Part shown: one piece after another, positions 421 through 22,841 of the stretch
Numbering within the stretch: position 1 is the stretch's first letter
Layout: each line of letters opens with the position of its first letter
Source of the DNA: Lactobacillus agrestimuris
Lineage (GTDB): Bacteria; Bacillota; Bacilli; Lactobacillales; Lactobacillaceae
Reading direction: 5' to 3'
DNA: 24,000 nucleotides
Assembly: GCF_943193025.1 (NCBI RefSeq)
Contig: NZ_CALPCQ010000004.1
Location: 1 to 24,000, forward strand
The notes under the pieces: model-generated
Told to the model about the DNA's origin: nothing
The model's database searches: none
The model's input: the letters and a program-made list of their open reading frames with translations, nothing else
Position numbers and translations under genes: made by a program

Positions 421-1431
421 ATGGTAGGAATTGTTTTAGCCAGCCATGGTGGTTTCGCTGATGGTATTGCACAATCTGCGCAAATGCTTTTTGGTGAACA
501 AACAAATTTTGCTCATGTCATCTTAAAGCCTGAAGAAGGTCCAGATGATGTTCGTGGCAAAATGGAAAAAGCAATTGCTTCATTTGATGACCAAGATGAA
601 GTATTGTTCTTAGTTGACTTATGGGGTGGAACACCATTCAATCAGGCTAATACTCTTAGCGATGGTCATGATAATTGGGCAATCGTTAGCGGTTTGAACT
701 TACCAATGGTTGTTCAGGCTTTGACTGAAAGAATGATGAATGATAAGGCTACTGCACACGAAATTGCAACTGCAGTAATTGCCCCAGCAATTGATGGTAT
801 TAAAACTAAACCATCAGATTTGATGCCTAAGACTGAAGCTGCTGCACCGGCTCAATCTGAAGGTAAAGCTACTGGTTCATCTAAGACTATTCCAGAAGGA
901 ACTGTTTTAGGTGATGGTCATATCAAGTACGTGTTGGCAAGAATTGATTCTCGTTTACTTCATGGTCAAGTTGCAACTGGTTGGATTCCTGCAATGAAGC
1001 CTGATCGTGTAATTGTTGTATCAGACAGCGTTGCAAAGGATGAATTACGTAAGAGTATGATTCGTGAAGCTGCGCCAGCTGGAGTTAAGGCACACACTGT
1101 TCCACTTAAGAAGATGGAAGAAATTGCTAAGGACCCAAGATTTGGTGATACACACGCACTTCTTTTGTTTGAAAATCCTGAAGATGTTTTAAGAGCTATT
1201 AAGGCCGGAGTTGACATCAAGGAAGTTAATGTTGGTTCAATGTCATACAGTGAAGGTGACGTTAACGCAAACAATGTTTTATCAATGAATCAAAAAGATG
1301 TTGATACATTCCGTGAACTTGAAAAGATGGGCGTTAAATTTGATGTACGTAAAGTTCCATCAGATAGTCCAAGTAATATGGATGCTATCTTAAACAAGGC
1401 TCAAACTTTACTTGACGAAAAGAATAAATAG
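421..1431 (+). CDS. manL: PTS mannose-family EIIAB component (fused EIIA and EIIB domains)
   Basis: N-terminal MVGIVLASHGGFA carries the EIIA-Man phospho-His motif. An Ala/Pro-rich linker (KTEAAAPAQSEGKATGSSK) follows, then an EIIB-Man domain with ARIDSRLLHGQV (phospho-His). The RBS is GAGGAGG, and this is the first gene of a IIAB-IIC-IID operon. Confidence 0.95.
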   Translation: MVGIVLASHGGFADGIAQSAQMLFGEQTNFAHVILKPEEGPDDVRGKMEKAIASFDDQDEVLFLVDLWGGTPFNQANTLSDGHDNWAIVSGLNLPMVVQALTERMMNDKATAHEIATAVIAPAIDGIKTKPSDLMPKTEAAAPAQSEGKATGSSKTIPEGTVLGDGHIKYVLARIDSRLLHGQVATGWIPAMKPDRVIVVSDSVAKDELRKSMIREAAPAGVKAHTVPLKKMEEIAKDPRFGDTHALLLFENPEDVLRAIKAGVDIKEVNVGSMSYSEGDVNANNVLSMNQKDVDTFRELEKMGVKFDVRKVPSDSPSNMDAILNKAQTLLDEKNK

Positions 1432-1441
1432 GAGTAAATAA

Positions 1442-2254
1442 ATGCAATTTAACTTTATTCAAATCATTTTGATCTTAGTTGTTGCCTTTCTTGCTGGTAC
1501 CGAAGGTATCTTGGATGAATGGCAATTCCACCAACCATTAGTTGCTTGTACTTTAATTGGTTTAGTTACTGGTAACTTAACACTTGGAGTTATTTTAGGT
1601 GGTTCATTGCAAATGATCGCAATGGGTTGGGCAAACGTTGGTGCCGCTGTTGCACCAGATGCCGCTTTGGCTTCTGTTGCTTCTGCAATTATCTTGATCG
1701 AAGGTGGTCAAGGTAAGGCAGGTGTCGGTACAGCCGTAGGTTTGGCTATTCCTTTAGCCGTAGCTGGTTTGTTCTTAACTATGATTGTCCGTACTATTTC
1801 TACTGCTATCGTTCACATCATGGATGCTGAAGCTAAAAAGGGTAACTGGAGAATGATTAACTTGTGGCAATGGATTGCTGTCTGCTTACAAGGTTTAAGA
1901 ATCGCTATTCCAGCTGGACTTCTTTTAGCTATTCCTGCCTCAACTGTTCAAGGTTGGCTTAAGTTGATGCCAACATGGTTGAGCGAAGGTATGTCAATCG
2001 GTGGTGGTATGGTTGTAGCTGTTGGTTACGCAATGGTTATTAACATGATGGCCTCAAAAGAAACTTGGCCATTCTTTGCTATCGGTTTTGCATTAGCAGC
2101 AATTCAAGAATTAACTCTAATCGCCCTTGGTGCTATCGGTATTTCATTGGCCTTGATGTACTTAGCTCTTGAATCAAAAGGTGGCAACGGTGAATCTGCA
2201 TCAAACAGTTCAAACACTGGTGATCCACTTGGCGATATTATTGATGATTATTAA
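1442..2254 (+). CDS. manM: PTS mannose-family EIIC component
   Basis: A polytopic hydrophobic protein typical of ManY/ManM (GWANVGAAVAPDAALASV). It has an AGGAG RBS and starts 10 nt after the manL stop. Confidence 0.93.
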   Translation: MQFNFIQIILILVVAFLAGTEGILDEWQFHQPLVACTLIGLVTGNLTLGVILGGSLQMIAMGWANVGAAVAPDAALASVASAIILIEGGQGKAGVGTAVGLAIPLAVAGLFLTMIVRTISTAIVHIMDAEAKKGNWRMINLWQWIAVCLQGLRIAIPAGLLLAIPASTVQGWLKLMPTWLSEGMSIGGGMVVAVGYAMVINMMASKETWPFFAIGFALAAIQELTLIALGAIGISLALMYLALESKGGNGESASNSSNTGDPLGDIIDDY

Positions 2255-2282
2255 AATAGGCGCTTAGAGGAGGATTTTTATA

Positions 2283-3203
2283 ATGGCTGATAAGAAATTT
2301 CAATTAACTAAGCGTGACCGCTTTAACGTTATGTGGCACTCACAATTCCTTCAAGGTTCATGGAACTATGAAAGAATGCAAAACGGTGGTTATGCATACT
2401 CAATGATTCCAGCATTGAGAAAATTATATCCAGATAAGAAAGATTTAGCTGCTGCCTTACAAAGACACTTAGTATTCTTTAACACTCACCCATACTTAGC
2501 TTCACCTGTACTTGGTGTTACTTTGGCTTTGGAAGAAGATAAAGCTAACGGTGCTGACGTTGAAGACGAAGCAGTACAAGGTGTTAAGGTTGGTATGATG
2601 GGACCTTTGGCCGGTGTTGGTGACCCAGTATTCTGGTTTACTATCCGTCCAATCCTTGGTGCTTTAGGTGCCTCAATGGCCTTAAGTGGTAATGTCGTTG
2701 GTCCTATCTTATTCTTCGTTCTTTGGAACTTAATTCGTCTTGGCTTCTTATGGTATACACAAGAATTTGGTTACAAGGCCGGTTCTGCAATTACTAAGGA
2801 CGTATCAGGTGGTCTTTTGCAAAAGGTTACCCGTGGTGCCTCAATGATGGGTATGTTTGTTTTAGGTGCCTTGATTGAACGTTGGGTTAACATTAAGTTC
2901 ATCCCAATTGTTTCTAAAACACCTATTCAAAAGGGTGGCTACATCGAATGGGACAAGCTTCCTGCAGGAGCAAAAGGTATTCAAGATGCCCTTCTTCAAT
3001 GGGATATGGGTAAAGGTAAGCAATTAACTAACATTAAGACTACTACCTTACAAGATAATCTTGACCAATTAATCCCAGGATTAGCCGGACTTCTTTTAAC
3101 ATTCTTATGTATGTGGTTATTGAAGAAGAAAGTTTCACCAATTTGGATCATTATCGGTATTTTCGTTGTTGGTGTATTATTCCACCTTTGGGGAATCCTT
3201 TAA
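2283..3203 (+). CDS. manN: PTS mannose-family EIID component
   Basis: The N-terminal motif WHSQFLQGSWNYERMQNGGYAYSMIP and FFNTHPY are hallmark EIID-Man sequences. The RBS is GAGGAGG. Confidence 0.95.
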   Translation: MADKKFQLTKRDRFNVMWHSQFLQGSWNYERMQNGGYAYSMIPALRKLYPDKKDLAAALQRHLVFFNTHPYLASPVLGVTLALEEDKANGADVEDEAVQGVKVGMMGPLAGVGDPVFWFTIRPILGALGASMALSGNVVGPILFFVLWNLIRLGFLWYTQEFGYKAGSAITKDVSGGLLQKVTRGASMMGMFVLGALIERWVNIKFIPIVSKTPIQKGGYIEWDKLPAGAKGIQDALLQWDMGKGKQLTNIKTTTLQDNLDQLIPGLAGLLLTFLCMWLLKKKVSPIWIIIGIFVVGVLFHLWGIL

Positions 3204-3209
3204 TCAAAA

Positions 3210-3575
3210 ATGGTCAAATCAATCAATACAAGGGTCGACTTTACGGTAGCTGCTACATGGTTTAGAAGTGTACCAAGTTACGGTAAGGCAATGATCGGTG
3301 ATAAAGCTTTTGAATTTTATAATGAACGCAATGTAACTGATTACGTTCAAATTCCTTGGAACGAAGTAACCTATGTTGTTGCGGATGTAAAATTTAAAGG
3401 AAAGTATATTCCGAGATTTGAAATTCGTACCAGACAAAATGGTAATTTCATCTTCGCTACCAGAGAAGTAAAGAAAACTTTGCGCGAGATTCGGAAGTAT
3501 ATTCCAGCAGATCATATGCTTAAGTCTTTGACGATTTGGCAAAAACTTAAGCGCAGATTTACGCGTAAGGGATAA
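3210..3575 (+). CDS. manO: DUF956 family protein (ManO-like small protein encoded after manLMN in Lactobacillales)
   Basis: A 121-aa ORF starting 6 nt after the manN stop, which suggests coupling. The sequence is of the type found downstream of man-PTS operons in lactic acid bacteria. Its function is unknown. Confidence 0.75.
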   Translation: MVKSINTRVDFTVAATWFRSVPSYGKAMIGDKAFEFYNERNVTDYVQIPWNEVTYVVADVKFKGKYIPRFEIRTRQNGNFIFATREVKKTLREIRKYIPADHMLKSLTIWQKLKRRFTRKG

Positions 3576-15375: not shown

Positions 15376-17034
15376 TTAGCTTAATTCCTTGATGATGCCT
15401 TCCAAAGTCTTCTTAGCTTCTTCTTGAATTGGAGTATTTGGATGTTCTTCATCATACTTGTTTAACCAATCAAGACGATCTTGCATTCTTCTTGCCAAAG
15501 TTTTTTGGTATTCAGGATCGTCAAGGTGTACCTCGTAACCATCGATAGGTAAGTAGCTAACACCCTTGAAGTTACCGAATGGTTTGAAATCCTTATCAGT
15601 GATTGAACCGTTAGCCAAACCTTCAATAAGCTCTTTAGTAACTTCCTTAGGAATATCTTTACCCATAAATGCATCAGTATTTAAGATGTAACAATTTGCT
15701 CCACGCTTGGTAAACAATTCCTTGAAGTCACGGTAGTCACCGGATACTGGGTATGCACGGAATGGGTCTGCGAATGGTTCAATTACTAAAGTATTCATAT
15801 CGAAGCCTTTTGGTAAGTTTTCTGCAGAAGTTCTCTTAGTTGCAAGAGTACATCCCATAGTAGTAGCAAGAACTGGATCATCAATTTTAAGTAGTGGTGG
15901 AAGTGAACCATCCTTCATAATCCAGAATAAAGCGGTAATAGGTGCCTTTTCAAAGTCAACACGGTGAGGACTAGTGTAACGGGTCTTGATAACACGACCA
16001 TTGTTGTTACGTAAGTCTTCAGTAACGATTACCTTATTACCATTTGAGTCTAATGTTACATCACAGTTCATTATAGTGGTGTAGTACTTAGTTTCATGGT
16101 GACCTGCTGGGTAGTCGTGAGTCTTATCAAAGTATGAAGGTTCTAAGGCAACCGATGAGCCATCTTCACGTGAAATGATAAATGCATCATCGTGAAGAAC
16201 GGTGATGTCGTACTTGCCATCGTACATTTCGTGAGTCAATGTTGACTTACCTGAACCCGACAAGCCATAGAATGCGAATACCTTATCATCCTTGTCCTTA
16301 AAGTGGAATGACTTTTCACCACCGTGACAAGCAGTATAACCATGTCTGTGGGCCATTGCCCATGCCAAGGTTAAAGTACCCTTCTTAAGTTCACCAAAGT
16401 AGCGAAGGTTAAAGACGGCAGCACAGTTATGTGGAGCATCAAAGACTCCAAAGCCCTTTGGATAATCTAGATCCTGAGTATTTGGATCGAAGTAGAAATA
16501 AATGTCAGGTTCTTCATAGAACTTAGACTTCTTGTACATCTCTTCTGCTTCGTCATCGAAGAAATGGAAGTTTAATATGTATGAAAGTAAGTTGAATGCT
16601 TGATCTTCAGGCATCATAACATGTGCTTTAACAGTGAAAGTAGGGTCAAGTCCTACCAAAACAGTTGCCTTCAAAAATTTTTGATTATGGCCATTATAAA
16701 TATCTTCACGTAAGTTGCCAGCTAATGCTTCAGGATCTTCGTTTGGATCGTCAGTAAAGTGACGAGCACTAGCAGTTCTACCTAAAATTTTACCGTGATT
16801 GTAAACAAGTTGTGTTGCACCTTGTGGTAAACCTAATTCTTTTGTATGTAAAATTGGTAAGTCTGTAACAATGACGCCAGGTTGCTGTTTAGCCAAGTTA
16901 TAGGCTTCGGCCACACTAGTAATTTCATGAACATTGTTACCATAGAATGCACTTTCGATAGTTGAGCGAACTCGACTAAACATTGGATTTGCTTTTCTTA
17001 ATTCATCTTGTGAATATCGTTCTTTTGTACTCAT
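15376..17034 (-). CDS. pckA: Phosphoenolpyruvate carboxykinase (ATP)
   Basis: The kinase-1a P-loop FYGLSGSGKSTLT and overall ATP-type PEPCK sequence are present. I start it at ATG 17034 (MSTKERY...), which has a GAGGGAGGAAG RBS 7 nt upstream. The ORF-track extension to 17085 starts on a non-ATG codon and runs through the candidate cre and 5' UTR. Confidence 0.93.
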   Translation of the reverse strand: MSTKERYSQDELRKANPMFSRVRSTIESAFYGNNVHEITSVAEAYNLAKQQPGVIVTDLPILHTKELGLPQGATQLVYNHGKILGRTASARHFTDDPNEDPEALAGNLREDIYNGHNQKFLKATVLVGLDPTFTVKAHVMMPEDQAFNLLSYILNFHFFDDEAEEMYKKSKFYEEPDIYFYFDPNTQDLDYPKGFGVFDAPHNCAAVFNLRYFGELKKGTLTLAWAMAHRHGYTACHGGEKSFHFKDKDDKVFAFYGLSGSGKSTLTHEMYDGKYDITVLHDDAFIISREDGSSVALEPSYFDKTHDYPAGHHETKYYTTIMNCDVTLDSNGNKVIVTEDLRNNNGRVIKTRYTSPHRVDFEKAPITALFWIMKDGSLPPLLKIDDPVLATTMGCTLATKRTSAENLPKGFDMNTLVIEPFADPFRAYPVSGDYRDFKELFTKRGANCYILNTDAFMGKDIPKEVTKELIEGLANGSITDKDFKPFGNFKGVSYLPIDGYEVHLDDPEYQKTLARRMQDRLDWLNKYDEEHPNTPIQEEAKKTLEGIIKELS

Positions 17035-17058
17035 AGTAGCTCTTCCTCCCTCAAATTC

Positions 17059-17072
17059 AGAAAGCGGTTTCA
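17059..17072 (-). promoter_or_regulatory. Candidate cre site in the pckA 5' UTR
   Basis: The minus-strand sequence TGAAACCGCTTTCT matches TGWAANCGNTNWCA at every position except the last. It lies between the predicted -10 and the RBS, a roadblock position. Confidence 0.55.
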
Positions 17073-17084
17073 TGCTTTTTGACA

Positions 17085-17123
17085 AATATAGAATAACATA
17101 ATTGGTTGTGAATAACTACACAA
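17085..17123 (-). promoter_or_regulatory. Candidate pckA promoter (-35 TTCACA at 17107-17112, 16-bp spacer, -10 TATATT at 17085-17090, minus strand) overlapped by a Rex-like box TTGTGAA-TAAC-TACACAA (17106-17123)
   Basis: The hexamers were read on the minus strand. The dyad matches TTGTGAA-N4-TTCACAA at 13 of 14 specified positions and covers the -35. Confidence 0.5.
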
Positions 17124-17171: not shown

Positions 17172-17200
17172 TTCAAAATAAGTGGTAAAACTGCTATAAT
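17172..17200 (+). promoter_or_regulatory. Candidate promoter of the three-gene TerB/ATPase/helicase operon: -35 TTCAAA (17172-17177), 17-bp spacer, extended -10 TGcTATAAT (17192-17200)
   Basis: It has a consensus TATAAT with a TG extension and ideal spacing, and lies about 35 nt upstream of the preferred start codon. Confidence 0.65.
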
Positions 17201-17234
17201 ATTCAGAACGTACGTACGAATGGAGGCCGGAAAG

Positions 17235-19088
17235 TTGAATTTTAATGAGTTAAGTCGTTATGTTTATCAAAAGTTTGGCTTGAAATTCAAACCAGCAATT
17301 CCGGGATCAACAGAGTTATATGTTTTAGAATCACCATTAGATGGGGCATATTTTGCCATGATGTCTCGAATTAAAAAAACTAATGCAGGTATGGATCAAG
17401 ATGGTTATATTTCAACTTTAGATTTAAGATGTGGATCTTTTTCAGATATGATTCGTGATTTACCTGGCTTTAGTTCAGCCTTTCGCTTGAAAGCTAACGA
17501 TTGGGTTGGTGTTTGGCTTGATCAGGCAAGTGAAAAGACGGTTAAACAGGCACTTGATTATGCTTTTAAGCTTGCAATGAACAAGAATGAGCAAGTGGAC
17601 GTTTCCAATAGTCAATATATTTTTGTCCCTGGTGAAAAAGTCGATAATAAGTATCAAAGCCAAGCAATTAAACCTCGCAGTAAAGTTAGAAGAAAAAATA
17701 ATTCAAATGTTCCTAACCAAATTTTGAAGATGCAAGAGGCGTATGACTATAGCCTGCTTCCATCAATGGGGAGAGAAAAGAACTTCTATCATCAAGCGGT
17801 GATCATGAAAGATTATGAGGATGATTTTGATGAAAAGGTTAACTTTAAGCAATATTATCCAACATATCATGATATGAAAATTTCACAGCTGCGAACTTAT
17901 TTCACTTGGCGCAAAAATATTCGTAAGGGAAAATTTGAAAAGATTAGTACCTCTTATGCTTATGTCTATGTTTATGAACTTTTAAACGACGTGGCTGATG
18001 ACCCAAAGAAAAGTTTTCGTAAGTTAAGAGAGTTTATTAATAAGTATATTTTAATTTACGATGTGGGGATGTTAGTTAATGTTGAAAGTTGGTTGAAAGA
18101 CTATGTGATTTACTACCAACTTGATTATGAGGCGGTTGAAGCAGCTTTCAAGCAGGAATTGGCAGAAGATCATAATTATCAAGTTTTACTTAAACCTGAA
18201 GAATATTCTGCCAAGGAAATTTTTGCTGTTTTAGAAGGGATATCCACATATTTAAAGAATTGTTTATCTTACAAGAAATTAGGTGAGCAATTTGAGGAAA
18301 TTGTTTATTATGTGTGGAAAAGTCTTGTTGCACTTAAACTTGAACCGAGAAGATCTTTTTTCAGTAAATATGTAGCTACAGCAAGTACTTTAAGTAAGAA
18401 ACTATTTGCAGGTGCAGTTTTTTATCAAAGAAAGAGTAAATTTGAAGACTTTGATCTCGATCCTGTAAGACATATTTCATACCAAGATGGGCACTGCTAC
18501 TTAAAGGCTTACTATCCAATAAAAAATCAGAAAAGTGAAATTAATACTTTTTTGCATGAGATTGATCGACTTCTAAGAAAAGAATTTTCTTTAGGGAGAC
18601 CGCTAAAAGCTCGGCCAATGGAAAAGCATTTTTTAGAAGTAATCGAAACTGGAATCAAAAATTATGAATCTGAAAAGGAACAGGAAAAGCGTAAAGTTGA
18701 GATTGATTTTTCAAGTTTAAATAAAATTCGTTCGGATGCATCAGTGACTAGAGATAGTTTGCTAACTGAGGATGAATTACGCTTTGATGAAGAAGATCTT
18801 AAAGAGAATGTTCAAGATAAGCAAGATAAAATAGAAAGTAAAGATACTGAAGAAGGCGAAAGATATGGGTTAGATCCTGACGAGCTTTATCTAGTCAAGG
18901 CTTTGCTTAAAGGCTTAGAATATAAAGATTACGTGAAAAGTCACCATTTGATGTTGTCAATTGTTGTTGATAATATCAATGAAAAACTTTTTGATGAGAT
19001 CGGTGATTCTGTCGTTGAATTTGATGAAAAAAATCAGCCAATAATCGTTGAGGATTATCTTGATGATCTAAATGAAATGTTTAAATAA
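17235..19088 (+). CDS. sngA: TerB-N/TerB-C domain protein with an N-terminal YjbR/MmcQ-like module (Shango SngA-like)
   Basis: Residue numbers follow the ORF-track protein. The central motif YPTYHDMKISQLRTYFTWRKNIRKGKFEKISTSYAYVYVYELLN (nt 17856-17987) is typical of TerB-N. The C-terminus ...HLMLSIVVDNINEKLFDEIGDSVVEFDE... (within nt 18696-19085) is typical of TerB-C. Residues 6-122 look YjbR-like. I prefer TTG 17235, which has GGAGG (17222-17226) 8 nt upstream; ATG 17220 has no RBS. The gene symbol is tentative and based on architecture only. Confidence 0.75.
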   Translation: MNFNELSRYVYQKFGLKFKPAIPGSTELYVLESPLDGAYFAMMSRIKKTNAGMDQDGYISTLDLRCGSFSDMIRDLPGFSSAFRLKANDWVGVWLDQASEKTVKQALDYAFKLAMNKNEQVDVSNSQYIFVPGEKVDNKYQSQAIKPRSKVRRKNNSNVPNQILKMQEAYDYSLLPSMGREKNFYHQAVIMKDYEDDFDEKVNFKQYYPTYHDMKISQLRTYFTWRKNIRKGKFEKISTSYAYVYVYELLNDVADDPKKSFRKLREFINKYILIYDVGMLVNVESWLKDYVIYYQLDYEAVEAAFKQELAEDHNYQVLLKPEEYSAKEIFAVLEGISTYLKNCLSYKKLGEQFEEIVYYVWKSLVALKLEPRRSFFSKYVATASTLSKKLFAGAVFYQRKSKFEDFDLDPVRHISYQDGHCYLKAYYPIKNQKSEINTFLHEIDRLLRKEFSLGRPLKARPMEKHFLEVIETGIKNYESEKEQEKRKVEIDFSSLNKIRSDASVTRDSLLTEDELRFDEEDLKENVQDKQDKIESKDTEEGERYGLDPDELYLVKALLKGLEYKDYVKSHHLMLSIVVDNINEKLFDEIGDSVVEFDEKNQPIIVEDYLDDLNEMFK

Positions 19089-19101
19089 TGGAGTGATATT
19101 A

Positions 19102-20433
19102 ATGCCAGAGAAAAAACGGAAAGTTCCGAAAAGAATTGCACAGGCTGTGCTTAACTCTTTAAAGGGTGGGGTTGTTCCAAGAATTGGACTTCCTTATGTA
19201 ACAGTTGGACGTAAAAGTGAAATTGAAGCCTTTTTACACGATGTTGATGTAATTTCTGAAGGTGGAGCATCATTTAGATTTATCGTTGGGCGCTATGGCT
19301 CAGGTAAAAGTTTTCTGCTTCAAACCATTAGAAACTATGTCATGGATCGAAATTTCGTTGTTGTTGATGGTGATTTATCCCCAGAAAGACGCCTTCAAGG
19401 TGGAAAAGGTCAAGGGTTAGCAACATATCGTGAATTAATTCAAAATTTATCCACAAAAACTCGCCCAGAAGGTGGGGCATTAACTTTAATTCTTGACCGG
19501 TGGATAAATTCTGTGCAAAACGAAGTTATCCAAGAAACAGGTCTAACAGATGATGATCCAAAGTTTGAAAAAGAAATGGATAAAAAAATCTATGATGTTA
19601 TCAATAATTTAAGTGAGATGGTGCATGGTTTTGATTTCGCTAAAATTTTGAATATGTACTATCACGCTTATTTAGAAGACGATGATGAGACCAAGGCTAA
19701 AGTCGTTAAGTGGTTCCGCGGAGAATATACGCATAAAACTGAAGCTAAGAAAGAACTTGGTGTAAGCATCATTATCTCTGATGATGACTGGTACGAATAT
19801 TTGAAATTGTTTGCTAGTTTCTTCAAGCAAGCTGGTTATGCTGGACTCGTGATTATGATTGACGAATTGGTTAATATCTACAAAATTCCAAATGCAATTA
19901 GTCGTCAATATAACTATGAAAAAATCCTTACTATGTATAATGATGCGATGCAAGGTAAAGCCAAATATCTTGGCATTATTATGGCAGGAACTCCGCAATC
20001 AATTGAAGATCGCCGACGTGGTGTATACAGTTATGAAGCATTGCGTTCTCGTCTTTCAGAAGGTAAGTTCTCAAAGGCAGGAGCTCGTGATATGTATGCG
20101 CCAGTAATTAAACTTGATCCATTGACTGCAGAAGAAATGCTAGTTTTAACTGAGAAGTTGGCCGATATGCATGCTGGTTTTTATGGCTATGAACGCACAA
20201 TTACTGATGATAATTTAGCCCAATTTATCAAGATTGAATATGCTCGAATAGGTGCGGATACGAATATTACTCCGCGTGAAGTGATTCGTGATTTCATTGA
20301 ATTACTTGATATCGTTTGGCAAAATCCACAAACCAACATTGAAGAACTACTTAATTCAGATCAATTTTCTTACACTAAATCTGAAGCAGTTTCAGATGAT
20401 AAGAAGGATGATTATACTGAATTTACTATTTAA
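19102..20433 (+). CDS. sngB: P-loop ATPase of the DUF2791 / BrxD-like type (Shango SngB-like)
   Basis: Walker A is GRYGSGKS (nt 19288-19311). Walker B is LVIMIDE, with the DE at nt 19861-19866. An N-terminal basic segment is present. I start it at ATG 19102 because GGAG lies 8 nt upstream. The ORF-track start at 19072 lies inside sngA. The symbol is tentative. Confidence 0.75.
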   Translation: MPEKKRKVPKRIAQAVLNSLKGGVVPRIGLPYVTVGRKSEIEAFLHDVDVISEGGASFRFIVGRYGSGKSFLLQTIRNYVMDRNFVVVDGDLSPERRLQGGKGQGLATYRELIQNLSTKTRPEGGALTLILDRWINSVQNEVIQETGLTDDDPKFEKEMDKKIYDVINNLSEMVHGFDFAKILNMYYHAYLEDDDETKAKVVKWFRGEYTHKTEAKKELGVSIIISDDDWYEYLKLFASFFKQAGYAGLVIMIDELVNIYKIPNAISRQYNYEKILTMYNDAMQGKAKYLGIIMAGTPQSIEDRRRGVYSYEALRSRLSEGKFSKAGARDMYAPVIKLDPLTAEEMLVLTEKLADMHAGFYGYERTITDDNLAQFIKIEYARIGADTNITPREVIRDFIELLDIVWQNPQTNIEELLNSDQFSYTKSEAVSDDKKDDYTEFTI

Positions 20434-20450
20434 AGAAAGTAAGATGAATT

Positions 20451-22667
20451 ATGGACGTATTTGATCATTATGCTCCGTTTATTCAAGACTATATTTATGA
20501 ACATAATTGGCAAAATCTTCGTCCGATTCAGGTAGCAGCGGCCGAAGAAATTTTTACAACTAATCATAATGTGCTTTTGGCAGCATCAACTGCTTCTGGA
20601 AAAACCGAAGCAGCATTTTTTCCAATTCTGTCAGAAATTAGTGAAGAAAAAGCTGACTCAATTCAAGTTCTGTATATTGCACCACTAAAGGCTTTGATTA
20701 ACGACCAATATGATCGTTTAACTGAATTGTGTGAACCTGCTGATATTAAAGTTTGGCGCTGGCATGGAGATGTAGCACAGTCACAGAAAAGACGAATGTT
20801 AAAAAAGCCGTCAGGTATTTTACAAATTACACCTGAATCACTTGAAAGCTTTATGATTAATAAGCATATGGATGTGCCACGTCTATTTCATGGCTTGAAT
20901 TTTATCGTAATTGATGAACTTCATTCTTTTTTGCGTAGTGATCGTGGTGGACAGACTTTTTCTTTAATTGAACGAATCTCGAAATTGGCTGATGTGAATC
21001 CTAGACGAATTGGACTTTCAGCAACAATTGGAAATTTAGATGATGCAAGTAAATTTTTAGGTGCAGGTAGCAAGTATGATACGGTGGCACCACGAGCTCA
21101 AAATGATCGTCAAGTATGGCGTCTTTCAATGGAACATTTTTATGAAACCGATCCGCAGGCTTCAAGCAAGGACTTTGATCCAGCAGAAATTGTGGAAGCT
21201 AAAACTGACAAAGCACCGGAGTTGGCTGATCCGGGAATTGGGTATATTTTTGAACACACTAGAGGAGCAAAGTCGCTGGTTTTCACCAACAGTCGTGAAG
21301 AATGTGAGGCCGTGTGTCAGGAGCTGCGTGAATATTGCCGCTATAACCATGAACCAGATCGCTTCTTGATTCACCATGGTAATTTGTCGCCAGCTTTGCG
21401 TGAAACTGCTGAACAGGCGATGAAAGATGAAGATTCTTATATGACTACATGTGCTACGGCAACGCTGGAATTGGGAATCGATATCGGAAAACTAGAAGCA
21501 GCCTATCAAATTGATGCACCGTTTACAGTTTCAGGCTTTTTGCAAAGAATGGGACGAACGGGTAGACGGGGAACACCGCCAGAAATGCATTTTGTAATGC
21601 GAGAAGAACATCCAGAATCTAGAACGATGCTGCCAGATTTAATTCCGTGGTCACTACTTCAAGGAATTGCATTAGTTCAACTATATATTGAGGAAAAATG
21701 GGTAGAACCACCTAACCCTAATCGCTTGCCGTACAGTTTGCTTTATCATCAAACAATGAGTACTTTAGCAGCAAGTGGAGAAATGACCCCGGCAGAGCTG
21801 GCTTCAAGAGTTTTAACCTTGTCATATTTTCACAATGTTAGTCAGGAAGATTATAAGGTCCTACTCAAAAATTTGATTAAAACTGATCATATTCAGTGGA
21901 CTGAAAATAAGGGCTTAATTCTTGGACTGGCTGGGGAAAGAGTTGTTAATAACTTTAAATTCTATGCGGTTTTTCAAGAAAACGAGGAATTTAGTGTTCA
22001 TGCTGGTAGTGAAGAATTAGGTACGATTGTGAAGCCGCCACCTGTTGGTGATAAGATTGCGATTGCAGGTCGCGTTTGGGTGGTTGAAGATATTGACCGC
22101 AAGCGTCATCAAGTCTATTGTCACGGAGTTGAAGGTAGAATTCCTGCATATTTTGGGGATGTACCTGGTGATATTCATCCGCATATTTTGCACAGAATGA
22201 GAAAAATTCTATCTGAAACAAATATGTATCCATATTTGATGAAAAATGCGAAAGCTAGACTTACTCAAGTGCGTGATACAGCTAATATTGCAGGACTTCC
22301 TGATAAGCAACTAATTAATTTAGGTGGAAAAATGTGGGCATTTTTCCCTTGGACTGGTTCGTATGCGTTTTTAGCACTTGAACGATTGCTTAGAATTAAG
22401 TGTGCCGATCGACTTAATTTGCGCGGCTTTAATTCATCAAGACCTTATTACATGGAATTTGCGATGGATGCAAATGAAGAAGAATTTTTCAAGATTTTGA
22501 AAGAAGAAGCAAATAAGGACTTTGATCCGATGACTTTAGTGTATCCTAAGGAAGTTCCGGTTTTTGATAAGTATGATGAGTATTTACCAGATGAGCTGAT
22601 TAGAAAAGAATTTGCTCAGGGCGTCCTTGATATTGAAGAGATGAAACGTTGCGTTAATGCGATGTAA
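20451..22667 (+). CDS. sngC: Lhr-like superfamily-2 DEAD/DEAH-box helicase with a C-terminal extension (Shango SngC-like)
   Basis: Motif I is ASTASGKT (20583-20606), motif II DELH (20913-20924), motif III SAT, and motif VI QRMGRTGRRG (21543-21572). These are followed by an Lhr/DEAD-associated-like segment, GDKIAIAGRVWVVEDIDRKRHQVYCH (22047-22124). The last ~170 aa are unassigned. The symbol is tentative. Confidence 0.78.
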   Translation: MDVFDHYAPFIQDYIYEHNWQNLRPIQVAAAEEIFTTNHNVLLAASTASGKTEAAFFPILSEISEEKADSIQVLYIAPLKALINDQYDRLTELCEPADIKVWRWHGDVAQSQKRRMLKKPSGILQITPESLESFMINKHMDVPRLFHGLNFIVIDELHSFLRSDRGGQTFSLIERISKLADVNPRRIGLSATIGNLDDASKFLGAGSKYDTVAPRAQNDRQVWRLSMEHFYETDPQASSKDFDPAEIVEAKTDKAPELADPGIGYIFEHTRGAKSLVFTNSREECEAVCQELREYCRYNHEPDRFLIHHGNLSPALRETAEQAMKDEDSYMTTCATATLELGIDIGKLEAAYQIDAPFTVSGFLQRMGRTGRRGTPPEMHFVMREEHPESRTMLPDLIPWSLLQGIALVQLYIEEKWVEPPNPNRLPYSLLYHQTMSTLAASGEMTPAELASRVLTLSYFHNVSQEDYKVLLKNLIKTDHIQWTENKGLILGLAGERVVNNFKFYAVFQENEEFSVHAGSEELGTIVKPPPVGDKIAIAGRVWVVEDIDRKRHQVYCHGVEGRIPAYFGDVPGDIHPHILHRMRKILSETNMYPYLMKNAKARLTQVRDTANIAGLPDKQLINLGGKMWAFFPWTGSYAFLALERLLRIKCADRLNLRGFNSSRPYYMEFAMDANEEEFFKILKEEANKDFDPMTLVYPKEVPVFDKYDEYLPDELIRKEFAQGVLDIEEMKRCVNAM

Positions 22668-22703
22668 AAGGCATAGCCGATTAGATTCGGTGATGCCTTT
22701 TTT
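22667..22703 (+). terminator. Terminator of the three-gene operon
   Basis: AAAGGCAT (22668-22674 region) pairs with ATGCCTTT (22693-22700), with an inner CCGA/TCGG pairing, followed by TTTTTT. It begins at the sngC stop codon. Confidence 0.8.
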
Positions 22704-22841
22704 ATTCTTAAATTAAGTTTTCAAGTAATAGAGTTTTAATCAGATAATTTCTATTTGTCTTAGATAAATTCATTAATATCATTTTTTATTTTTTAGAAGA
22801 GTTGTATACTAATCTTTAGTAAGCAAAAAGAGGGAAGAAAA

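Follow-up and report, generated by a model that had tools for sequence, protein, structure and literature searches.

Shango, a defence against phages encoded by three genes, sngA, sngB and sngC, was discovered in parallel in two studies (Millman et al., 2022; Johnson et al., 2023). The Shango of Pseudomonas aeruginosa PA14 causes 10-100-fold plating drops, and the Escherichia coli system gives about 10-fold protection. Johnson et al. (2023) reported no Shango mutants, and a review of February 2026 still lists the mechanism as unknown; the domain given for Shango in a review is PF05099 (TerB proper). Millman et al. (2022) suggest membrane surveillance for systems with TerB domains, and the same was put forward again for TerB proteins in a preprint of 2025. 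The helicase SngC falls, together with BrxHI, DruE and DpdJ, into a clade of superfamily 2 (SF2) helicases associated with defence. In type 2 BREX, BrxHI and BrxD, an AAA+ ATPase of the ORC/Cdc6 type, form a linked dyad in which BrxD is the proposed loader of BrxHI; BrxHI itself consists of an SF2 helicase followed by a winged helix, a β-barrel and an Lhr-CTD-like domain (PMC12839542). Here we analyze a 24,000-nucleotide stretch of Lactobacillus agrestimuris DNA (hereafter the window; contig NZ_CALPCQ010000004.1, positions 1 to 24,000, of assembly GCF_943193025.1), in which an initial annotation, made from the letters of the DNA, had proposed a Shango-type operon.

Assignment to the Shango family

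The profile searches agree with the proposed identity. The best PADLOC models of the three proteins are SngA (PDLC03958, E-value 1.3e-71), SngB (PDLC03959, 4.1e-198) and SngC (PDLC03960, 1.4e-277), and residues 94-621 of SngA align to positions 32-527 of the 528 in its model. The BREX models BrxD (8.2e-52) and BrxHI (2.7e-128, matching over the full length) score far lower on SngB and SngC. The domains expected by the initial annotation were also recovered in Pfam, with TerB_N and TerB_C (1.3e-27 and 1e-24) in gene 1 and DEAD and Helicase_C (1.6e-33 and 2.5e-16) in the SF2 helicase of gene 3, all above threshold, and with BrxC_BrxD (1.1e-172, positions 1-413 of 414), likewise above threshold, in gene 2, the DUF2791/BrxD-like P-loop NTPase. 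Models of related families stay below their cutoffs: the BrxD equivalog NF033438 of NCBIfam reaches 175 bits on SngB against a curated cutoff of 350, and on SngC the ligase-associated DEXH helicase model TIGR04121 reaches 205 bits against 850 and the full-length Lhr-type model PRK09751 98 against 1496. Because the Sng models score highest and the BrxD, Lhr and DEXH models fall short, we assign the operon to Shango, and neither to BREX nor to Lhr. It also has each feature by which PADLOC and DefenseFinder define the system, namely SngA, SngB and SngC encoded by adjacent, co-oriented genes in the order A-B-C. Judged by these matches, the operon almost certainly belongs to the Shango family.

The catalytic motifs lie where they had been placed. 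SngB has Walker A, GRYGSGKS (19288-19311), and Walker B, VIMIDE (19849-19866, with the DE pair at 19861-19866). SngC has SF2 motifs I (ASTASGKT, 20583-20606), II (DELH, 20913-20924), III (SAT, 21018-21026) and VI (QRMGRTGRRG, 21543-21572), all of them intact. Domain and profile scans of the three proteins detected neither a nuclease nor a toxin domain, as had been stated. A membrane domain is likewise lacking. The Lhr-like accessory region proposed for gene 3 stood in part: the BrxHI model matches from end to end, whereas the winged-helix family WH_Lhr matches below threshold only (6e-4; scores of 19.6-22.4 against a cutoff of 27). DEAD_assoc (PF08494), which had been considered for the same protein, gave no match at E ≤ 0.01 in the Pfam scan.

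Among solved structures, Lhr (5v9x, also 7lhl) and MrfA/YprA (6znp) come nearest to SngC, found by sequence (E about 1e-26) and by fold search. The C-terminal domains of SngC can presumably be read from the BrxHI match. The protein is identical, residue for residue, to an NCBI protein of L. agrestimuris.

Shango has been validated experimentally. As PADLOC would annotate this locus automatically, it is ordinary as a family call. The family itself is already known; what is new is an SngA of the composition YjbR-TerB_N-TerB_C that lacks PF05099, a near-fixed chromosomal position, the unequal rates of the three proteins and a box at the promoter. The features of the operon are listed in Table 1.

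Table 1. Features of the sng operon in the window (residues of SngA in 622-residue numbering).
Feature	Position	Strand	Description
Promoter	17172-17200	+	-35 TTCAAA (17172-17177), 17-nt spacer, extended -10 TGcTATAAT (17192-17200)
Operator-like box GAACGTACGTACG	17206-17218	+	Overlaps the expected transcription start
sngA	17220-19088	+	Open reading frame; probable start TTG 17235 (617 aa); 622 aa from ATG 17220
Predicted YjbR/MmcQ-like "double-wing" domain of SngA	17235-17579	+	Residues ~6-120
TerB_N of SngA (PF13208)	17688-18320	+	Residues 157-367; helical, pLDDT about 90
TerB_C of SngA (PF15615)	18663-19070	+	Residues 482-617, broken by a disordered acidic linker (514-550)
sngB	19102-20433	+	443 aa, BrxD-like AAA+ ATPase; the open reading frame itself opens at 19072
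sngC	20451-22667	+	738 aa, SF2 helicase of Lhr/BrxHI type
Intrinsic terminator	22666-22703	+	14-bp interrupted stem, then T-run

Architecture of SngA

An AlphaFold2 model of SngA, built on 58 homologues, has a mean predicted local distance difference test score (pLDDT) of 84.6. From the N-terminus it shows an α/β domain (residues 1-120), a disordered linker, the helical TerB_N region, a middle part of β-strands and helices, the acidic linker, which holds 15 D/E against 6 K/R, and a compact TerB_C end. When the model was compared with the PDB using Foldseek, only the N-terminal domain gave matches. The first of these is PSPTO_3016 (3h9x_A; E 5.9e-7, TM-score 0.84, root-mean-square deviation 2.2 Å over 116 columns), and DR2400/DUF419 (2a1v) follows with an E-value of 0.02. 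The first ~120 residues are thus predicted to adopt the YjbR/MmcQ fold. This fold has been described as a "double wing" DNA-binding motif.

The Pfam model for YjbR (PF04237) does not match residues 1-140 at E ≤ 10. A phmmer search with the N-terminal domain in 1.84 billion representative sequences returned 34 matches at E ≤ 0.001, about 13 of them of the size of SngA. Six of the matches (P0253, P0254, P0258, P0261, P0262 and P0269) pass the Pfam YjbR threshold and include standalone proteins, and some of the YjbR relatives reached in this way are fusions to an MGMT DNA-binding domain or to a helix-turn-helix (HTH) domain. One homologue carries the JGI name MmcQ/YjbR family. Since the PADLOC SngA model starts aligning at residue 94, it leaves the YjbR-like domain uncovered. 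Three giant proteins, P0245 (4676 aa), P0247 (2902 aa) and P0256 (1497 aa), match residues ~26-73 of the SngA N-terminal domain in 5-6 repeated stretches each, which could be a repeated β-hairpin module or compositional bias.

For TerB_N and TerB_C, neither sequence nor fold comparison found a solved relative, and a search of a viral structure library gave no match at E ≤ 0.001. TerB proper (PF05099) did not match at E ≤ 0.01 in the whole protein or at E ≤ 10 in residues ~284-518, and in a profile comparison with the SngA of Salmonella only TerB_C aligned. No transmembrane segment was found, the maximum hydropathy being 0.88. The SngA proteins of Salmonella and Azospirillum plasmids are composed of TerB_N, TerB (PF05099) and TerB_C, that of a Bacillus cereus plasmid carries an N-terminal TM2 domain, and Clostridium SngA has no N-terminal module. 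SngA is therefore modular, with a lineage-specific, sensor-like end on a conserved TerB_N/TerB_C scaffold.

Unequal evolution within the operon

The three subunits differ strongly in their rates. Across 13 aligned loci (the window and 12 others), mean pairwise identity is 93.9% for pckA, the gene upstream of the operon, 89.2% for SngB, 86.5% for SngC, 85.1% for the downstream nitroreductase and only 54.5% for SngA, with a minimum of 44%. Between species, SngB keeps 85-92% and SngC 82-91% identity, against 44-56% for SngA, which diverges about 4-5 times faster than its partners. Relative to the window, SngA is 56% identical in L. hamsteri and 46% in L. gallinarum. The same order holds over larger distances. 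Compared with the window, the proteins of two Limosilactobacillus loci (L076 and L077) are 87 and 83% identical in SngB, 83 and 80% in SngC, but 39 and 35% in SngA; those of Lactobacillus johnsonii are 83, 76 and 37% identical, and those of a Clostridium estertheticum plasmid 72, 69 and 31%, respectively.

The ratio of nonsynonymous to synonymous divergence (dN/dS, pairwise Nei-Gojobori) is 0.015-0.055 for SngB and SngC, 0.03-0.06 for pckA and 0.06-0.18 for SngA, with saturated dS in the sng genes. Purifying selection acts very strongly on SngB and SngC. Positive selection on SngA could not be demonstrated at dN/dS values of 0.06-0.18 with saturated synonymous sites. Swapping of sngA alleles or cassettes was rejected: SngA identities follow the same two subclades as those of pckA, SngB and SngC, and the pattern is therefore one of acceleration. 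Conservation within SngA is concentrated in the N-terminal domain, in the TerB_N core (166-255, the most conserved stretch) and in the TerB_C end (556-621); residues ~300-430 and the acidic linker vary most. As SngA diverges while SngB and SngC are near-frozen, the comparison suggests that SngA is likely the specificity subunit.

The DNA of pckA is far more conserved than that of its neighbours (93-96% against 82-87% identity, dS of 0.24-0.5 against >1, relative to the orthologues in L001-L040), which strong codon bias or recombination could explain. Owing to this exceptional conservation, pckA is a poor yardstick for neutral divergence at the locus.

Distribution and inheritance

We located pckA in one genome per species, which returned 68 loci, and determined the presence of the sng genes by tblastn. 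Besides the window, 13 further Lactobacillus genomes have sngABC directly beside pckA, among them L. xujianguonis, L. kalixensis, L. hamsteri, L. gallinarum, L. kefiranofaciens, L. ultunensis, L. kitasatonis, L. amylolyticus, Candidatus L. pullistercoris and three metagenome-assembled genomes. In L. johnsonii, the operon follows the permease-adhE pair that the window also has, but the mtl-pckA block is missing there. A single identical SngA sequence turns up in 721 blocks of the sequence collection. At 0.26-0.28, the GC content at third codon positions (GC3) is the same in the sng genes as in the flanks, and a search for flanking repeats around the operon found none. Of the two origins proposed in the initial annotation, an old chromosomal acquisition or a variable defence hotspot, the former is favoured by the synteny, the adhE neighbourhood in L. 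johnsonii, the flank-like GC3 and the absence of flanking repeats. We rejected a foreign island for the last two reasons and because sngB and sngC are as similar between close species (82-87% nucleotide identity) as the other neighbours are. The operon thus looks like an old resident.

The operon comes close to a universally conserved, syntenic core gene set, the pattern that the initial annotation had set against its own proposal, but it does not reach it. The interval from pckA to the nitroreductase holds an epimerase instead of the operon in L. pasteurii and Lactobacillus sp. LL6. In L. helveticus DSM 20075 (L038, 8645-11456), the final 40 codons of sngC are all that is left of the operon, next to a pckA pseudogene that a frameshift has divided into two open reading frames. 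This remnant fits the known genome decay of the dairy species; other L. helveticus records keep a full-length SngA (P0031).

Outside Lactobacillus the genes are mobile. Homologues of SngB with TerB_N proteins and DEAD helicases as neighbours occur on 696 plasmids, of which 542 are conjugative, and in no phage record. In two Limosilactobacillus genomes the operon lies right after a 5S rRNA gene and its terminator (L076, 1-180; L077, 7780-8000), in one case adjoining relaxase and integrase genes. A 5S rRNA end and tRNA-Asn (1-168) stand at the start of the window too, but 17 kb from the operon. On the Clostridium estertheticum plasmid pCF002-344, an 848-residue ABC-type ATPase follows directly after sngC (L072, 9596-12142). 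It matches the PADLOC candidate-defence models mad3 (5e-68) and mad8 and may be an accessory or neighbouring defence gene.

The borders of the operon differ between species. The 175-bp spacer between sngC and the nitroreductase (22668-22841) is replaced in L002, L003, L005 and L007-L012 by 0.04-2.9 kb of varied cargo, such as an ammonium transporter, an IclR/isochorismatase/SDR trio, a LytTR pair, a TnpB fragment, a PARG-like macro-type protein and UmuC-like and Fic-like genes; a region of gene flux therefore abuts the stable operon. A 123-125-residue open reading frame (MxLKINQxVSKDAQ...) begins ~30 nt past the sngC stop on the same strand. It is conserved in the gallinarum clade (L005 3978-4349, L007 2943-3317, L008 3977-4351, L009, L011, L012, L040; L038 8221-8592), is absent from the window and belongs to no Pfam or PADLOC family. 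We rejected it as a fourth Shango gene, since L. helveticus DSM 20075 keeps it despite the sng deletion and no defence model matches it; it is probably independent of the operon. Upstream, in L. johnsonii (L069-L071, 5082-8364), a group II intron reverse transcriptase lies between adhE and sngA, in one strain together with an ISL3 transposase, in the place that the mannitol operon and pckA occupy in the window.

The rest of the window is ordinary metabolism. Before the operon it encodes, in this order, a 5S rRNA end, tRNA-Asn, a mannose phosphotransferase system (PTS) with DUF956, a LysR regulator, an acetyltransferase, an amino-acid permease, adhE, mtlR, mtlA, mtlF, mtlD and pckA (15376-17085), which stands on the opposite strand; the nitroreductase follows downstream. 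This is the setting described in the initial annotation, and the window indeed has no integrase or transposase, its sole tRNA (Asn, 95-168) lying 17 kb away. Among the neighbours, the open reading frames of the mannose PTS and DUF956 (421-3575) were scanned with PADLOC and gave no match. Exact-sequence look-ups for four window proteins and for the protein P0121 returned no match.

Transcription unit and promoter box

The three genes form one tightly packed transcription unit. The gaps of 13 and 17 nt reported earlier correspond to 19089-19101 and 20434-20450: sngA ends with TAA (19086-19088), sngB starts at ATG 19102 after a GGAG and stops at 20431-20433, and sngC starts at ATG 20451. For sngA we prefer TTG 17235 as the probable start over ATG 17220, because the orthologues start 7-9 nt past GGAGG. 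In the window this ribosome-binding site (17222-17226) ends 8 nt before the TTG and is overlapped by the ATG. The single terminator was likewise found, with a folding energy of -18.8 kcal/mol (z = -5.7) that none of 200 shuffled sequences equalled.

The strong promoter postulated for the whole operon is the best-scoring promoter-like site of the region (10/12 matches plus the TG) and its sole site with an extended -10. The scan as a whole gave 23 sites against 23.9 in shuffled sequences, hence no excess, and the -35 hexamer is not conserved between species. The promoter is credible because TGnTATAAT is conserved across loci: it does not vary among the window, 13 orthologous Lactobacillus loci and two Limosilactobacillus loci.

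In an alignment of 13 pckA-sngA intergenic regions, one further element is invariant, GAAC-RYRY-GTRCG, located 0-7 nt downstream of the -10. Within 872 kb of Lactobacillus DNA (the window, L001-L043, L061, L062, L067 and L069-L071) it occurs 13 times, each time 0-7 nt past the -10 of sngA. Both Limosilactobacillus operons have the box too, following TGGTATAAT in unrelated genomic surroundings, and L. johnsonii has GAAT-ATAT-GTTCG at the equivalent place. Altogether, 15 of 16 Shango promoters from Lactobacillaceae share the box, and it was not found in the Shango loci examined outside this family.

The siting of the box over the expected transcription start is that of a repressor operator, and sng expression is probably held down by a repressor at GAACGTACGTACG. 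The consensus of the Firmicute LexA operator, or Cheo box, is CGAACRNRYGTTYC, with the core GAAC-N4-GTTC (PMC2248561). The window box matches this general Firmicute consensus at 11-12 of 14 positions. Like that operator, the box has a GAAC left half-site, an RNRY spacer and a GT.CG right half-site over a σA transcription start, and the L. johnsonii sequence is a complementary variant of it. In contrast to the operator, 15 loci have GTAC or GTGC as the right half-site, and none of them has GTTC. LexA would be the obvious candidate binder, and the constant GTRC half-site possibly leaves room for another factor; on the resemblance of the two motifs, LexA control of the operon appears conceivable, if not quite probable. 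No lexA or recA gene was present in the 1.27 Mb of collected DNA, of which the scan covered the 872 kb of Lactobacillus DNA, and a literature search yielded no Lactobacillus LexA motif. The region upstream of the UmuC-like gene in L007 was ambiguous as a LexA-site comparison. In the 872 kb, canonical GAAC-N4-GTTC does not occur, and GAAC-N5-GTTC occurs nine times against about 10 predicted by base composition; the zero may reflect purging of spurious LexA sites, or chance.

Proposed mechanism and alternatives

We consider it reasonably probable that the locus is a functional Shango operon in a Lactobacillaceae variant, with SngA as sensor, SngB as loader, SngC as helicase and a repressed promoter. 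By analogy with the characterized systems, a role against phages in L. agrestimuris is likely, and the mobility of homologous operons elsewhere, namely their spread on conjugative plasmids and the relaxase and integrase neighbours in Limosilactobacillus, counts in its favour. The division of labour among the three proteins is proposed tentatively. SngA would be a sensor or adaptor that recognises the invader, here probably its nucleic acid, through the YjbR-like domain, while its conserved TerB_N core and TerB_C end would dock on SngB and SngC. SngB, an ORC/Cdc6-type AAA+ protein homologous to BrxD, could act as an ATP-driven loader or switch that places or activates SngC. The Lhr/BrxHI-type helicase, once loaded onto phage DNA, would translocate or unwind and so block replication or circularisation. 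The system would have no nuclease of its own and would spare the host; a block of phage replication without cell killing fits the protection across widely varying phage doses by the PA14 Shango. Transcription would be repressed at the box, possibly by LexA, and would rise on DNA damage or infection.

The contrast in identity and dN/dS between SngA and the SngB-SngC pair counts for this division of labour, as do the lineage-specific modules of SngA. The fusions of YjbR relatives to MGMT DNA-binding or HTH domains speak for a link of the N-terminal domain to DNA, and the BrxD-BrxHI dyad, with BrxD as proposed loader (PMC12839542), for the loader. A near-frozen ATPase and helicase beside an SngA that evolves ~4-5 times faster can be viewed as a natural experiment pointing to SngA as the subunit for specificity or target contact. 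A YjbR-fold domain in place of the membrane or TerB modules of other lineages would argue for sensing of nucleic acid over membrane sensing here, and a 13-bp box that travels with the operon between genera and genomic contexts suggests a possible tie to DNA-damage signalling.

Several points weigh against this interpretation. The defence role is transferred by analogy from homologues in proteobacteria, whose SngB and SngC share only 32-40% identity with those of the window and whose SngA is built differently. The locus is housekeeping-like, being syntenic in many species, with flank-like GC and no neighbouring defence genes. As the dN/dS of SngA is well below 1 and dS is saturated, relaxed constraint is inseparable from an arms race, and within the species, with 6 differences across 622 residues, SngA cannot be called hypervariable. 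That the YjbR-like domain binds DNA is assumed on the strength of its predicted fold, the predicted model of SngC is poor (pLDDT 59.9), and in every box of the acidophilus group and of Limosilactobacillus one half-site position departs from the LexA consensus (GTRC).

In a more specific form of the proposal, which we hold to be rather unlikely, the Lactobacillaceae Shango would be a distinct version wired into the LexA/SOS response, in which a fast-evolving, DNA-binding SngA (YjbR-TerB_N-TerB_C) directs a near-invariant loader-helicase engine of SngB and SngC. If so, the same machine could work in genome maintenance as well as against phages or induced prophages, and would give mechanistic work on Shango its first handle.

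The chief rival reading sees in the operon a housekeeping module for DNA damage or repair, composed of an Lhr/MrfA-type helicase, a loader and a DNA-binding adaptor under an SOS switch, with phage defence absent or secondary. It draws on the synteny in the window and 13 Lactobacillus genomes, the shared adhE neighbourhood of L. johnsonii, the SngA sequence in 721 blocks, a dN/dS of about 0.02 for SngB and SngC that is as low as or lower than that of pckA, GC3 equal to the flanks, the lack of mobile-element or defence genes nearby, the Cheo-box-like element on the transcription start, the kinship of SngC to Lhr and the repair helicase MrfA and the YjbR/MmcQ-type domain of SngA. However, all three proteins score far better on the Shango models than on those of repair helicases (205 against a cutoff of 850 for DEXH), and homologous operons are common on conjugative plasmids and stand beside relaxase and integrase genes in Limosilactobacillus. 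The operon is also dispensable: L. helveticus DSM 20075 has lost it by deletion, and in L. pasteurii and sp. LL6 the site lacks it. SngB and SngC share ~70% identity with their counterparts on a Clostridium plasmid, which points to horizontal spread. Finally, a repair adaptor that diverges to 44% while its partners stay near 85% would be unusual. We regard a repair module as unlikely.

Membrane surveillance, in which SngA would reside at or cycle to the membrane, sense perturbation of the membrane or envelope by phages and then activate SngB and SngC, takes up the suggestion of Millman et al. (2022) and of the 2025 preprint quoted above, and the TM2 transmembrane domain at the N-terminus of the B. 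cereus plasmid SngA agrees with it. It appears quite improbable for the window, whose SngA has neither a transmembrane segment nor a detectable PF05099 and carries, where the B. cereus protein has TM2, a presumably cytosolic YjbR-fold domain with relatives fused to DNA-binding domains.

Abortive infection is very improbable as well. Here the triggered ATPase and helicase would act on the host chromosome or its replication forks and halt the cell before phage release. A system that encodes neither a nuclease nor a marker of self and non-self, such as a methyltransferase, would be compatible with such an outcome, and a repressor-type box could serve to keep a toxic activity low, but the long and stable vertical carriage and the very strong purifying selection show no sign of a toxicity cost.

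That the operon is a leftover of type 2 BREX, a BrxD-BrxHI pair without a function of its own after loss of the core genes, would account for the matches to both BREX models (8e-52 and, over the full length, 2.7e-128) and for the linkage of the dyad in that system, but the Sng models score far higher, the BrxD equivalog stays below its cutoff, PglZ, BrxC, PglX and PglW are missing from the window, and the conservation of three intact genes at dN/dS of about 0.02-0.18 across many species effectively refutes it.

A functional, repressed Shango operon thus remains our preferred interpretation. A near-ubiquitous, chromosomally fixed defence system would shape the phage sensitivity of probiotic and starter lactic acid bacteria, and the features of the lactobacillus form are entry points into a mechanistically unsolved system.

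Comparison with known systems

The sng operon resembles several described systems in parts. With the dyad of type 2 BREX it shares the full-length match of SngB to BrxC_BrxD and the end-to-end match of SngC to BrxHI, but PglZ, BrxC, the PglX methyltransferase and PglW are absent from the window and the partner is instead a TerB_N/TerB_C protein. The repair helicases Lhr and MrfA/YprA are the closest solved relatives of SngC, which also has a weak winged-helix (WH_Lhr) match after the helicase core. SngC nevertheless scores far below the cutoffs of these families, has no DEAD_assoc match in the Pfam scan and is encoded in one operon with SngA and SngB, whereas Lhr and MrfA are without such partners. 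As for the YjbR/MmcQ proteins (PF04237, DUF419), represented by PSPTO_3016 and DR2400, they are related to the N-terminal domain of SngA by the predicted fold and the phmmer link. In SngA, however, the domain is invisible to the Pfam model and is fused to TerB_N and TerB_C, a rare fusion.

The comparison is closest with Shango itself. Lactobacillus SngA differs from the canonical form by the lack of a detectable PF05099 and by the added N-terminal domain with a predicted YjbR fold, and SngB and SngC are only 32-40% identical to those of proteobacterial plasmid Shango. The window operon is chromosomal, syntenic and vertically inherited within Lactobacillus, in contrast to systems in a defence hotspot such as cDHS1, and Lactobacillus operons have the conserved Cheo-box-like promoter element. 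In common with the Shango of E. coli and PA14, the operon encodes, in the same order and without a nuclease or toxin, a TerB_N/TerB_C protein, a BrxD-like ATPase and a DEAD/DEAH helicase with intact catalytic motifs.

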